A model generated the notes under the pieces. The model did no database searches. It was not told where the DNA came from and saw only the letters and a program-made list of their open reading frames with translations. From a virus (lineage: Duplodnaviria > Heunggongvirae > Uroviricota > Caudoviricetes), in the IMG/VR virus record IMGVR_UViG_2630968639_000008: a DNA stretch of 33,922 bases. One strand, given 5' to 3'. The position numbers were made by a program, and so were the translations under genes. This document shows positions 3,397 through 17,562 of this stretch, in pieces. Each line of letters starts with the position of its first letter. The stretch's first letter is position 1.

Positions 3397-5972
3397 CGTC
3401 CACCTCCGGAGAACAGGCCACCATCACGCATCTGTGTCTGAATTTCATCACGGGCACCCTTGCGGGCCATGTCATACACTGCCTTCATCATCTGTGGACC
3501 TGGCAGACCATTCGTACCGTCGTTCTGAATCACCACGTGATTGTTCTGATTAAAATTAATGCCTTCAGCCCGCCGCATCTGCGCCGGACTTCCGGCACCG
3601 CCCACATAACCACCTTCCGCATAGCCCCGCATCAGGCGGTACAGGTTGCCGACACCAATCCGGCTGGTTGCCTCCTTCGTGAAGACAAATTCACCACGGT
3701 GAACAATCCCCGCTGGCTCATATTTGCCGCCGGTTCCCGTAAATCCCCCGGTCGCAAAATGGAATTTCGCCGCAGCTGCCTGAATGGCTGTACCGCCTGA
3801 CGCGGATGCGCCGCCACCAACAGCCCCGCCAATGGCGCTGCCGATACTCCCGACAATCCCCACCATTGCCTGCTTAAGCAGAATTTCTGTCATCATGGAC
3901 AGCACGGAACGGGTGAAGCTGCGCCAGTTCTGCTCACTGCCGGTCAGCATCGCCGCCATATTCTGTGCAATACCATCAAAGGTCTGCGTGGCAGCACTTT
4001 TAACCTGCGACATACTGTCCGTGGCGCTCTCTTCCCACTCACTCCAGCCGGACTTCAGGCCTGCCATCCAGCTCCCGCGAAGCTGGTCTTCAGCCGCCCA
4101 GGTCTTTTTCTGCTCTGACATGACGTTATTCAGCGCCAGCGGATTATCGCCATACTGTTCCTTCAGGCGCTGTTCCGTGGCTTCCCGTTCTGCCTGCCGG
4201 TCAGTCAGCCCCCGGCTTTTCGCATCAATGGCGGCCCGTTTTGCCCGTTGCTGCTGTGCGAATTTATCCGCCTGCTGCGCCAGCGCGTTCAGGCGCTCCT
4301 GATACGTAACCTTGTCGCCAAGTGCAGCCAGCTGGCGTTTGTACTCCAGCGTCTCATCTTTATGCGCCAGCAGGGATTTCTCCTGTGCAGACAGCTGGCG
4401 ACGTTGCGCCGCCTCCTCCAGTACCGCGAACTGACTCTCCGCCTTCCACAAATCCCGGAGCTGCTGGCTGATTTTCTCATTTGCTCCGGCATGCCTCTCC
4501 AGCGTCCGGAGTTCAGCCTGAAGCGTCAGCAGGGCAGCATGAGCACTGTCTTCCTGACGATCGCCCGCAGACACCTTCACGCCGGACTGTTTCGGCTTTT
4601 TCAGCGTCGCTTCATAATCCTTTTTCGCTGCCGCCATCAGCGTGTTGTAATCTGCCTGCAGGATTTTTCCGTCTTTCAGTGCCTTGTTCAGTTCTTCCTG
4701 ACGGGCGGTATATTTCTCCAGCGGAGTCTGCAGACGTTCGTAAGCCTTCTGCGCCTCTTCGGTATATTTCAGCCGTGATGCCTCAGACTCAGCACGATCT
4801 TTTGCTGCCATCTCACTGGCCTTTTCAAGATCTGCCTGCAATGTGGCGGCTGAAAGACCAAGTTGCGCATTCGCCCTGTCCTCCCATGCGCCACGGAGAT
4901 TGGCAAGAAATGCTGAGGTTTTACCACGCCGGTGGCTCCGGCTCTGATACCACTGCCATTTCTTGTCCGCTTCATCAAAAGCCTTTTCTGCTTTCTCCAG
5001 CATTTCCCGGGCAGTGTCCGGGCGACCAATATCCAGCACCGAATCCCACATGGATTTAAATGCCCGTGCTGTCTTATCTGCCCAGGTCTCCAGCGTGCCC
5101 ATGTTATCTTTCAGGCGGCGGGTCTGGTCATCAAACCCTTTCCTTGCGGCCTCGTTCGCCGCCTGCAATGCCCCGGCTTCATCGCCGGAACGCTGCAACT
5201 GAGCAACATACGCAATCTGCTCCGCTGTCACGTTATGGAACTGGCGCGCCATCGCCGTCAGCCCCGACGTCGGGTCTGTGGTCAGCTTCCCGAAGGCTTC
5301 AGCAACCTTGTCCACCTCCACGCCCGATGCAGAGGAGAAACGCGCCACACTCTGGCTGATCGCCTCAAACTGCTCACCACCACGCACACCGGCATTCACC
5401 AGCGCCGTCAGAGACTCGCTGGTCTGGTTAAACGTCAGCCCTGCCGCCTGCCCGGCTCTGGACAGGACCAGCATACGATCTGCCGTCAGTCCCGCCTGAT
5501 TGCCGGAAAGGACCAGCGTTTTGTTGAAATCGGACAGGGTTGAGTTGCCCTGATACCAGGCATACGCCAGCGCACCGGTCGCCACCGCCAGCGAGGTGGC
5601 CCCCACCATCGGCAGGGTGATCGCACCGGCAAGCCCCCTGAACATGGGGATCATCCCGCCGAAGGAGTCCTTAACCTGACCACCCTGTTGCAGCAGGATC
5701 AGCCACGGACTTTGCCCGCCTGCAAGCTGCGTGGCCACGTCGGTGAACTGTGCAGGCAGCATACGCATGGCGGCTTTATACTGCCCGACGGAAATCCCCG
5801 CTTTCTGTGCAGCCAGCGCCTGTCGGCTCAGCGACTGTTCAACGACTGCCGCTGTTTTTTTCGCATCACTTTCCGTACCGGAAAAATGACGCCTGACTCT
5901 GGCCATCTGCTCGTCAAATCTGGCCGCATCCAGACTCAAATCAACGACCAGATCGCCTACCGGTTCAGCCAT
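3393..5972 (-). CDS. H: Tail tape measure protein H
   Basis: 859-aa ORF, coiled-coil rich with a Gly-rich C-terminal region; N- and C-terminal stretches match recalled lambda H. Numerous antisense ORFs inside it are treated as spurious. Confidence 0.9.
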   Translation of the reverse strand: MAEPVGDLVVDLSLDAARFDEQMARVRRHFSGTESDAKKTAAVVEQSLSRQALAAQKAGISVGQYKAAMRMLPAQFTDVATQLAGGQSPWLILLQQGGQVKDSFGGMIPMFRGLAGAITLPMVGATSLAVATGALAYAWYQGNSTLSDFNKTLVLSGNQAGLTADRMLVLSRAGQAAGLTFNQTSESLTALVNAGVRGGEQFEAISQSVARFSSASGVEVDKVAEAFGKLTTDPTSGLTAMARQFHNVTAEQIAYVAQLQRSGDEAGALQAANEAARKGFDDQTRRLKDNMGTLETWADKTARAFKSMWDSVLDIGRPDTAREMLEKAEKAFDEADKKWQWYQSRSHRRGKTSAFLANLRGAWEDRANAQLGLSAATLQADLEKASEMAAKDRAESEASRLKYTEEAQKAYERLQTPLEKYTARQEELNKALKDGKILQADYNTLMAAAKKDYEATLKKPKQSGVKVSAGDRQEDSAHAALLTLQAELRTLERHAGANEKISQQLRDLWKAESQFAVLEEAAQRRQLSAQEKSLLAHKDETLEYKRQLAALGDKVTYQERLNALAQQADKFAQQQRAKRAAIDAKSRGLTDRQAEREATEQRLKEQYGDNPLALNNVMSEQKKTWAAEDQLRGSWMAGLKSGWSEWEESATDSMSQVKSAATQTFDGIAQNMAAMLTGSEQNWRSFTRSVLSMMTEILLKQAMVGIVGSIGSAIGGAVGGGASASGGTAIQAAAAKFHFATGGFTGTGGKYEPAGIVHRGEFVFTKEATSRIGVGNLYRLMRGYAEGGYVGGAGSPAQMRRAEGINFNQNNHVVIQNDGTNGLPGPQMMKAVYDMARKGARDEIQTQMRDGGLFSGGGR

Positions 5973-12096: not shown

Positions 12097-15777
<3,681 letters not shown>

Positions 15778-15803
<26 letters not shown>

Positions 15804-16323
15804 TCAGCAACCCCGGTATCAGTTCATCCAGCGCGGCTGCTTTGTTCATGGCTTTGATGATATCCCGTTTCAGGAAATCAACATGTCGGTTTTCCAGTTC
15901 CGGAAAACGCCGCTGCACCGACAGGGGGATCCCGTCGAGAATACTGGCAATTTCACCTGCGATCCGCGACAGCACGAAAGTACAGAATGCGGTTTCCACC
16001 ACTTCAGCTGAGTCTCTGGCATTCTTCAGTTCCTGTGCGTCGGCCTGCGCACGCGTAAGTCGATGGCGTTCGTACTCAATAGTCCCTGGCTGGAGATCTG
16101 CCTCGCTGGCCTGGCGCAGTTCTTCAACCTCCCGGCGCAGCTTTTCGTTCTCAATTTCAGCATCCCTTTCGGCATACCATTTTATAACGGCGGCAGAGTC
16201 ATAAAGCACCTCATTACCCTTGCCACCGCCTCGCAGAACGGGCATTCCCTGTTCCTGCCAGTTCTGAATGGTACGGATACTCGCACCGAAAATGTCAGCC
16301 AGCTGCTTTTTGTTGACTTCCAT
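15778..16323 (-). CDS. nu1: Terminase small subunit Nu1
   Basis: 181-aa ORF MEVNKKQLADIFGASIRTIQNWQEQGMPVLRGGGKGNEV..., matching lambda Nu1; first gene after cos. Confidence 0.92.
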
Positions 16324-16560
16324 TGTTCATTCCACGGACAAAAACAGAGAAAGGAAACGACAAAGGCCCAAAAGTTCGTTTTCAGCACCTGTCGTTTCCT
16401 TTCTTTTCAGGGGGTATTTTAAATAAAAACATTAAGTTACGACGAAGAAGAACGGAAACGCCTTAAACCGGAAAATTTTCATAAATAGCGAAAACCCGCG
16501 AGGTCGCCGCCCCGTAACCTGTCGGATCACCGGAAAGGACCCGTAAAGCGATAATGATTA
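16324..16560 (-). other. cos region: cosN 12-nt cohesive-end sequence at 16501-16512, cosB between cosN and Nu1, cosQ side at 16513-16560
   Basis: Plus strand reads AGGTCGCCGCCC at 16501-16512, the reverse complement of the lambda cohesive end GGGCGGCGACCT; flanking sequence matches the recalled lambda right end (...GTTACGGGGCGGCGACCTCG). Confidence 0.85.
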
Positions 16561-16711
16561 TCATCTACATATCACAACGTGCGTGGAGGCCATCAAACCA
16601 CGTCAAATAATCAATTATGACGCAGGTATCGTATTAATTGATCTGCATCAACTTAACGTAAAGACAACTTCAGACAATACAAATCAGCGACACTGAATAC
16701 AGGGCAACCTC

Positions 16712-16906
16712 ATGTCAACGAAGAACAGAACCCGCAGAACAACAACCCGCAACATCCGCTTTCCTAACCAAATGATTGAACAAATTAACATCGCTCTTGT
16801 TCAAAAAGGGTCCGGGAATTTCTCAGCCTGGGTCATTGAAGCCTGCCGTCGGAGACTAACGTCAGAAAAGAGAGCATATACATCAATCCAAAGTGATGAT
16901 GGATGA
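16712..16906 (+). CDS. Hypothetical small protein with ribbon-helix-helix-like pattern (possible DNA-binding protein)
   Basis: 64-aa ORF; RNIRFP strand-like segment followed by two short helices (NQMIEQINIALVQKG, NFSAWVIEACRRRL) resembles the Arc/CopG fold; same strand as bor. Weak RBS. Confidence 0.35.
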   Translation: MSTKNRTRRTTTRNIRFPNQMIEQINIALVQKGSGNFSAWVIEACRRRLTSEKRAYTSIQSDDG

Positions 16907-17268
16907 ACATCCCGGTTTCTTCCACCATCGCACCGGAAAAGCGACTATGAGGGTAACCCTGCGTCTGTCAGCACAGTAAAACCCGGTGTGCATCGTTTTT
17001 GATTATTCCCGCACACTCACGCAGAAGGAATTCCCCGTCGGGCTACGGTCATGGTTAATGCGGGAATACGGCGACGATACAGCGCAGCTAAAAGGGTAAT
17101 AGACGGATAGACCGATTTATTTCATTCCACAGGATTCTGAGTGTCCCCAACTTCCTCCAATAGTCTGAGCGTACACCTATATAGTTTTAATTTTCATCAA
17201 TCCATTTAACTATCGTTTAATTGTTGTCACATAGGATTCTGCCGTTTTTAACAATGCAGGATAATAAG

Positions 17269-17562
17269 ATGAAAAAAATGTTGTTTTCTGCCGCTCTGGC
17301 AATGCTTATTACAGGATGTGCTCAACAGACGTTTACTGTTGGAAACAAACCTACAGCAGTAACACCAAAGGAAACCATCACCCATCATTTCTTCGTTTCG
17401 GGAATTGGACAGGAGAAAACTGTTGATGCAGCCAAAATTTGTGGCGGCGCAGAAAATGTTGTTAAAACAGAAACCCAGCAAACATTCGTAAATGGATTTC
17501 TCGGTTTTATTACTTTAGGCATTTATACTCCGCTGGAAGCGCGTGTGTATTGCTCACAATAA
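17269..17562 (+). CDS. bor: Bor lipoprotein (serum-resistance type lysogenic-conversion protein)
   Basis: Track ORF trimmed to ATG at 17269: MKKMLFSAALAMLITGCAQQ... has a signal peptide and lipobox (LITGC); 97 aa; antisense to the lysis genes as in lambda. Confidence 0.85.
   Translation: MKKMLFSAALAMLITGCAQQTFTVGNKPTAVTPKETITHHFFVSGIGQEKTVDAAKICGGAENVVKTETQQTFVNGFLGFITLGIYTPLEARVYCSQ

Follow-up and report, generated by a model that had tools for sequence, protein, structure and literature searches.

The ribbon-helix-helix (RHH) proteins Arc and Mnt (P22), CopG and the N-terminal domain of NikR are small and share one order of elements: a strand, a helix, a G-x-S/T/N turn and a second helix. 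In the strand of Arc, N11 and R13 contact DNA, and L12 and W14 are core residues. Lambdoid prophages carry a small gene, ylcI, whose E. coli K-12 relative ynfO is still counted as uncharacterised (PMC11551758); a literature search found no functional work on ylcI, ynfO or DUF3950, the domain family to which they belong, and the two resequencing papers that report ylcI "mutations" give no functional information. Reviews of lambda list only cI, rexAB, lom and bor as genes expressed in the lysogen (PMC7067206).

The window analysed here is a stretch of 33,922 nucleotides from a tailed virus (Caudoviricetes; IMG/VR record IMGVR_UViG_2630968639_000008). It is a lambdoid prophage, reversed relative to the lambda map. 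An initial annotation, made from the letters alone, had placed a 64-aa ORF at 16712-16906 between cos and bor, on the bor strand, and this placement is exact; that the ORF is a catalogued gene, ylcI/DUF3950, present in lambda, had not been recognised. The features around it are as follows.

13878..15803, minus strand: terminase A
15778..16323, minus strand: nu1 (Phage_Nu1, E 9e-101)
16501-16512: cosN, AGGTCGCCGCCC; the linear right end of lambda aligns from window position 16513
16536-16542: cosQ (AGGACCC), transferred from the phage 434 annotation
16712..16906, plus strand: ylcI coding sequence, ATG to TGA, 64 aa plus stop; by the alignments, codons 1-47 are the conserved DUF3950 / RHH-like domain and codons 48-64 a variable tail
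17269..17562, plus strand: bor (Pfam Lambda_Bor, E 3.7e-30)
beyond bor, minus strand: Rz, a 165-aa lysozyme and a 71-aa holin

ylcI is divergent from nu1, with cos between the two, and its orientation is head-on to the late operon. The next gene on the plus strand is bor, 363 bp downstream; PGAP calls this bor homologue (17269-17562) "iss", increased serum survival lipoprotein. Two genes that part ylcI from bor in lambda and DLP12, ybcW/p79 and ybcV/p78 (DUF1398), are missing from the window and from phage 434, and window 16979-17089 corresponds to lambda 46865-46974, just upstream of lambda bor. Stx phage 2851 (L010 4393-4580) has likewise kept a wider block of 180 bp, window 16904-17086, within which lies a perfect 10-nt inverted repeat (17004-17013 / 17059-17068). 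On both strands downstream of ylcI, no Rfam family was matched at E <= 1, and the RNA folding z-scores were +0.5 and -0.3.

The product of ylcI matches Pfam DUF3950 (PF13132) with 69.8 bits against a cut-off of 25 (E 1.7e-19), the NCBIfam model YlcI/YnfO (NF041551) with 36.2 bits against a cut-off of 30, and PHROG 949, labelled "unknown function", with E 2.6e-34. The core motif of the family, K-x-I-R-F-P ... N-F-S-A-W-V-x-[DE]-A-C, appears in it as RNIRFP ... NFSAWVIEAC. Among 50 DUF3950 sequences R16, F37 and V41 are invariant, and N36, F37 and S38 are conserved. The entire segment from cos to the start of bor (821 bp, window 16480-17300) occurs at 100% identity in E. coli STEC409, where PGAP names the gene ylcI (WP_032084195.1). 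The STEC409 prophage may be defective, given that its S49 peptidase head protease/scaffold gene is a pseudogene with an internal stop (L003 298-1617). In E. coli K-12, ylcI adjoins nohD in DLP12 and ynfO adjoins nohA in Qin, nohD and nohA both being nu1 homologues. Comparison with the right end of lambda, which had been proposed as a check, places the ORF at 48109-48303 on the minus strand (L002 3110..3304) with 4 of its 64 residues different; the window copy has V30 for E30 and a tail ending ...IQSDDG, and otherwise nothing of substance sets it apart from lambda and K-12 YlcI. The lambda RefSeq record NC_001416 leaves the gene unannotated; phage 434 and several newer lambda-like RefSeq records annotate it.

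The gene is very widespread. The 821-bp segment matches 5010 of the 5426 complete E. coli genomes, and a 321-bp query comprising the upstream block and codons 1-50 matches 4184, at up to 12 places each, or 3747 when coverage of 80% or more is required. Relatives with 35-55% identity occur in Serratia, Pectobacterium, Brenneria, Xenorhabdus, Proteus, Morganella, Pantoea, Tatumella, Buttiauxella and Salmonella arizonae, among others. Thus ylcI is an already catalogued prophage gene, very widespread and without an assigned function.

Apart from these, dozens of "homologues" sit on contigs that are about 3.5 kb long or lambda-sized and are assigned to Streptomyces, Cohnella, Pedobacter, Brevibacillus, Arcanobacterium, Staphylococcus, a spider and others, many with frameshifted tails. 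The 3.6-kb nanopore control amplicon derives from the lambda right end, and these odd-host copies look like lambda control or spike-in DNA and not true diversity; they inflate the cluster counts of DUF3950. In the Pasteurella phage/satellite Pmp7 (L098), a DUF3950-like ORF at 4853-5011 on the plus strand is unannotated, and a 224-aa "transcriptional repressor" is called across it on the opposite strand (4435-5109); either of the two may be a shadow ORF.

The size of the ORF is no evidence that it is a gene, since 61 ORFs of at least 25 aa overlap the 4 kb around it. It might be a chance frame that owes its conservation to cis-acting DNA near cos or to an opposite-strand gene: lambda, 434 and the window agree just as closely in the non-coding DNA around it, and the ORF goes unannotated in the lambda RefSeq record. 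The Stx phages separate these readings. With window positions 16513-16930 as the query, their DNA is homologous at positions 200-340 alone, a stretch that opens at the ATG and closes near codon 47, and the DNA on either side of it is unrelated. Within it, 15-22 of the 21-27 differences from ylcI fall in third positions, and 12-18 codons are changed synonymously against 5 non-synonymously. The motif persists in the 35-55% identical relatives of other genera, orthologue pairs in other Enterobacterales have a dN/dS of 0.02-0.2, and no antisense ORF in the ORF list spans codons 1-47. The tails are modular, with YlcI, YnfO and the Stx copies carrying unrelated C-termini. Family matches, homology confined to codons 1-47 and the bias to third positions and synonymous changes together show that ylcI is a real gene under purifying selection. 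The chance-frame reading, which the initial annotation had named as an outcome that would sink its proposal, is on this substitution pattern already refuted, and we give it almost no weight.

The initial annotation had ascribed to the ORF the strand-helix-helix pattern of Arc/CopG-type repressors. The pattern itself is borne out by the AlphaFold2 model, computed from a 24-sequence alignment: residues 1-18 are extended, a helix covers residues 19-32, a turn is formed by G33-S34-G35-N36 and a second helix covers residues 37-59. This is the RHH order of an N-terminal strand region, helix A, a tight turn and helix B. Two features of the coding sequence correspond to it.

16745..16762, plus strand: codons 12-17 (T-R-N-I-R-F), putative DNA-reading beta-strand, placed by the hhalign register with Arc N11, L12, R13 and W14
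16808..16819, plus strand: codons 33-36 (G-S-G-N), inter-helix turn in the model, compare G-x-S/T/N of RHH proteins

The monomer was predicted with a mean pLDDT of 69 and no beta-strand; as a model it resembles an RHH monomer outside its dimer, in which alone the strand would exist. Foldseek searches of the PDB with this model gave as top match the StnY/CopG-family structure 9kkd (probability 0.90), followed by NikR, Arc (1par), MazE9 and CopG (1ea4), and further MatP, YiiF, HicB and an RHH ParB. These matches have an rmsd of 1.8-2.1 A over 37-42 residues, with a best E of 0.21. Against BFVD the best E was 0.095, and the named matches were mostly "ribbon-helix-helix DNA binding domain protein" or "Arc-type".

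Profile comparisons run in the same direction and likewise fall short of significance. In a profile search of the PDB (hmmsearch), CopG-family 9kkd was matched in register at E 0.5-0.8; nothing in the PDB was significant with the single protein or with two profiles. When 24 family members were scanned against Pfam at E <= 10, no second family recurred consistently, and the only Pfam RHH family to appear was RHH_6, at E 0.09 in one of the 24. The hhalign alignment with Arc (E 0.017, probability 2.7%) places T11-Q20 on Arc P8-E17 (TTRNIRFPNQ / PQFNLRWPRE). It pairs I15 and F17 with Arc L12 and W14, and N14 and R16 with Arc N11 and R13; in the DUF3950 alignments I15, R16 and F17 vary little or not at all. 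In a profile search of a set of 5.8 billion proteins, meant as a bridge to RHH families, the best 120 matches were all DUF3950. The RHH reading is therefore supported in three ways, by sequence pattern, predicted secondary structure and Foldseek lists, none of which is statistically decisive. The profile and structure searches that had been suggested thus settled the family, with DUF3950 and YlcI/YnfO above their cut-offs, and left the Arc/CopG-type assignment with RHH-dominated lists of matches short of significance. With this qualification, YlcI is very probably an RHH protein.

The surroundings of ylcI bear on what such a protein might do. A ylcI-type gene stands at the junction of the lysis and packaging genes, alone on its strand, in three packaging systems: i) lambda nu1-A, as in the window; ii) a prophage with unrelated cosB and terS and a homologous cosN-cosQ-spacer-ylcI segment; and iii) Stx phages with HNH-terS-terL, in which it starts 42 bp from the divergent HNH gene. 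The lambda-type ylcI is always linked to cosN-cosQ, and this linkage outlasts the replacement of cosB and terS. YlcI might accordingly be a DNA-binding factor associated with cos or packaging that shields the prophage cos, represses leaky nu1-A in lysogens or modulates terminase specificity, a reading to which the recurrence of the gene just before and divergent from the packaging genes of the HNH-terS-terL phages also lends itself, as do certain satellite fusions described below. HK225 argues otherwise: its lambda-like cosQ/cosN end leads straight to Rz without ylcI, so that ylcI is accessory and dispensable for a lambda-type cos. Moreover, the late transcript from which terminase is expressed runs antisense to ylcI, many relatives have no packaging genes nearby, short cos fragments suffice for lambda packaging, and the lysis/packaging junction is a generic insertion site for accessory genes, bor being an example. 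A role at cos or in packaging is for these reasons considered quite unlikely.

In the manner of a moron, ylcI lies opposite the late operon and is not present in all related phages, HK225 having the same cos end but no ylcI; mosaic break-points bound it at the ATG and close to codon 47. A gene placed alone opposite the late operon at this junction is expected to be expressed mainly in the prophage state. In E. coli K-12, ybcW-ylcI is among the convergent overlapping transcript pairs (excludon) found in at least 50% of RNA-seq samples (PMC12288877). The DNA upstream of ylcI has three features to be considered here.

16590..16711: conserved non-coding block of 122 bp, candidate promoter, operator or 5' UTR
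16610..16642: inverted repeat ATCAATTATGACG-n7-CGTATTAATTGAT, 13-nt arms, 85% complementary
16701..16704, plus strand: probable Shine-Dalgarno sequence AGGG (GGGG in lambda), 7 nt before the ATG; the phage 434 equivalent is annotated as an RBS

In the most divergent lambda-type copy, that of the prophage with unrelated cosB/terS, the block 16590-16711 is 89.3% identical to the window, compared with 86.5% for codons 1-47 and 80-83% for the cosQ-proximal stretch 16521-16589. Judged by sequence, the inverted repeat is the best operator candidate for the lambda-type protein. The lambda-type and Stx-type upstream sequences are non-homologous and have no 10-mer or longer word in common, although the strand residues of their proteins are identical. 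Sigma-70 consensus and PWM scans of the plus strand upstream of ylcI found nothing above shuffled sequences, and no terminator was found downstream. The proposal that the ORF lies outside the main operons and could be expressed in the lysogen fits the head-on orientation and the K-12 transcript listing, although these scans turned up neither a promoter nor a terminator for it.

Several other signals in this stretch were considered. A perfect TTGACA on the minus strand (16713-16718) overlaps the start codon of ylcI and faces cos; with the best -10, CAGTGT, it scores 9.6 by PWM, which is within the range of shuffles. The "CII site" marks of phage 434 were left unused, being bare consensus matches on the other strand. 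A 37-aa ORF at 16583..16696, which takes up the conserved block, was rejected as a leader peptide: its GTG start is absent in phage 434, in the ynfO-type copy and in the MMC-J-0066 copy, and of its codon changes relative to the divergent copy 4 are synonymous and 5 non-synonymous.

The initial annotation had offered two roles for the protein, a regulator of bor or host genes and an antitoxin-like element. Nothing was found that favours the former. The latter hangs on the Qin prophage, where ydfO (DUF1398) follows ynfO after 58 bp on the same strand and in the same frame (L013 4757-5458). The pairing recurs in another E. coli, and read-through fusions of DUF3950 and DUF1398 occur (P0165; P0258, a 233-aa cluster with 761 member sequences). 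Lambda and DLP12 also have a DUF1398 gene downstream of ylcI on the same strand; antitoxins commonly have the RHH fold, and one weak PHROG match (E 0.12) is HicB-like. YlcI could on this evidence be an antitoxin-like or regulatory partner of the DUF1398 protein (YdfO, YbcV, lambda p78), with the window copy orphaned by loss of that partner. Against such a partnership, no DUF1398 gene accompanies it in the window, in phage 434, in the Stx phages or in any of the satellites, and in lambda and DLP12 the oppositely oriented ybcW/p79 intervenes. The NMR structure of YdfO (2HH8) is labelled only "hypothetical protein", and no toxic activity is known for DUF1398 even with this structure solved. The C-terminal tail of an antitoxin usually binds the toxin; here the conserved part is the DNA-binding-like domain, and the tails of YlcI and YnfO are unrelated. 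PADLOC gave no defence or toxin-antitoxin match for YlcI, YnfO, YdfO, lambda p78 or p79, and the adjacent co-directional toxin gene of a type II system does not occur in the window. We regard a partnership with DUF1398 as distinctly improbable.

Hints at the mechanism come from distant relatives in satellites. About 20 of the 39 divergent genomic loci examined are P4/PICI-like satellites of a common layout: an integrase, AlpA, often an AntA or Rha antirepressor, an unknown gene and a primase-helicase lie on one strand, and the DUF3950 gene stands alone on the other, between the antirepressor and the primase operon. A 2026 survey counts YlcI/YnfO among the accessory genes of Enterobacter cf-PICIs (PMC13612085). 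At twelve satellite loci, the stretch of about 170 bp preceding the DUF3950 gene was read. Palindromes of 13 bp, rGTG-N7-CAC, are found at -100, -77 and -31 from the ATG, with a phasing of 23 bp. The one at -31 overlaps the TATAGT -10 box of the DUF3950 gene, and the one at -77 abuts ACGTCAA, which on the other strand is a TTGACG -35 facing the primase operon. A conserved GC-rich hairpin also occurs in the satellites at about -150.

The outer GTG/CAC and residue R16 are constant in the satellites, and the centres of the palindromes co-vary with residues 12 and 14, in the following classes.

Residues 11-14 TTKG: centre CACAAA, CACATA or CATATA
Residues 11-14 xYKG: centre TTTAAA
Residues 11-14 AKKN: centre TGCGCA
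Residues 11-14 ATKK: centre CGGCCA
Residues 11-14 AKKH: centre TGCACC or TGTACC

The co-variation is suggestive of a repressor/operator pair of diverging specificity, and would fit an RHH ribbon with alternate residues facing the DNA. It is confounded by common ancestry and the small number of classes, and another satellite protein could bind the sites. Gram-negative PICIs are described as AlpA-controlled (PMC6092414), so that a DUF3950 switch would be an additional layer of control. In two satellite fusions (P0184 and P0303; L004 4714-5103), DUF3950 is joined to a segment of 50 residues that shares 60% identity with the phage 2851 TerS in its N-terminal (Terminase_2) part; in phage 2851 itself the DUF3950 gene adjoins HNH-terS-terL. 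These are the fusions that speak for a tie to packaging, as mentioned above.

Taking these lines together, we lean, with modest confidence, towards YlcI being an RHH repressor or autoregulator that is expressed when late transcription is off. Its dimerization and DNA binding are presumed from the RHH reading, and its role as a repressor is suggested by the satellite relatives, which sit at a divergent promoter with three phased palindromes. YlcI would fold as an RHH dimer and act as a sequence-specific repressor or autoregulator. A beta-ribbon made of residues 12-17 from both chains would read the major groove. In it the invariant R16 and the variable positions 12 and 14 would face the DNA, and helices 19-32 and 37-59 would form the dimer core. 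Expression would be mainly confined to the prophage state, in which late transcription is off, and head-on late transcription would silence the gene. For the lambdoid protein the best candidate target is the 122-bp upstream block with its inverted repeat.

A broader reading can be drawn from the same material, for which we see an outside chance: DUF3950 proteins would be previously unrecognised RHH switch repressors common to helper phages and satellites, and the lambdoid copy would serve in helper-satellite cross-talk or in control of the prophage cos and terminase. The satellite proteins, some of them fused to a helper-type TerS DNA-binding domain, would then control the replication operon through three phased palindromic operators, and phage lambda would gain an unannotated regulatory gene. 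The gene is in lambda itself and, with a probe that includes the upstream block, in about 70% of complete E. coli genomes. If YlcI is a DNA-binding regulator expressed by the prophage, it adds to the established list of lambda lysogen genes. The satellite relatives supply a concrete model for it, with three operators and a reading head made up of residues 12, 14 and 16. In practical terms its value is limited, since ylcI is accessory and nothing ties it to bor or virulence; what merits attention is the satellite switch, together with the TerS fusions.

Compared with the described systems, YlcI is, like Arc, Mnt, CopG and the N-terminal domain of NikR, a small protein with their order of strand, helix, turn and helix. 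As in Arc, its putative strand alternates hydrophobic (I15, F17) with polar or basic residues (N14, R16), and its gene is phage-borne. It differs from all four in a longer helix 2 with conserved W40 and C45, in a 12-residue basic N-terminal arm and in a sequence and profile similarity that is not significant, and from Arc and Mnt in that its gene adjoins cos and is not in an immunity region. With the antitoxins ParD, RelB and the C-terminal domain of HicB it has in common that it is a small RHH-like protein, of which the Qin copy lies directly upstream of a second small gene; in contrast to these, the window ylcI has no adjoining toxin gene, its tail is not conserved, and toxin-antitoxin and defence matches are absent. 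The satellite DUF3950 gene, as in Stl of the SaPIs and the cI/cro switches, is the sole leftward gene at a divergent promoter with three operator-like palindromes, although its fold is unrelated to those of Stl and cI and its sites are putative operators recognised from sequence. The window ylcI differs from these satellite relatives in turn: it does not have the divergent three-palindrome architecture, and GTG-N5-9-CAC sites are absent from 16300-17300.
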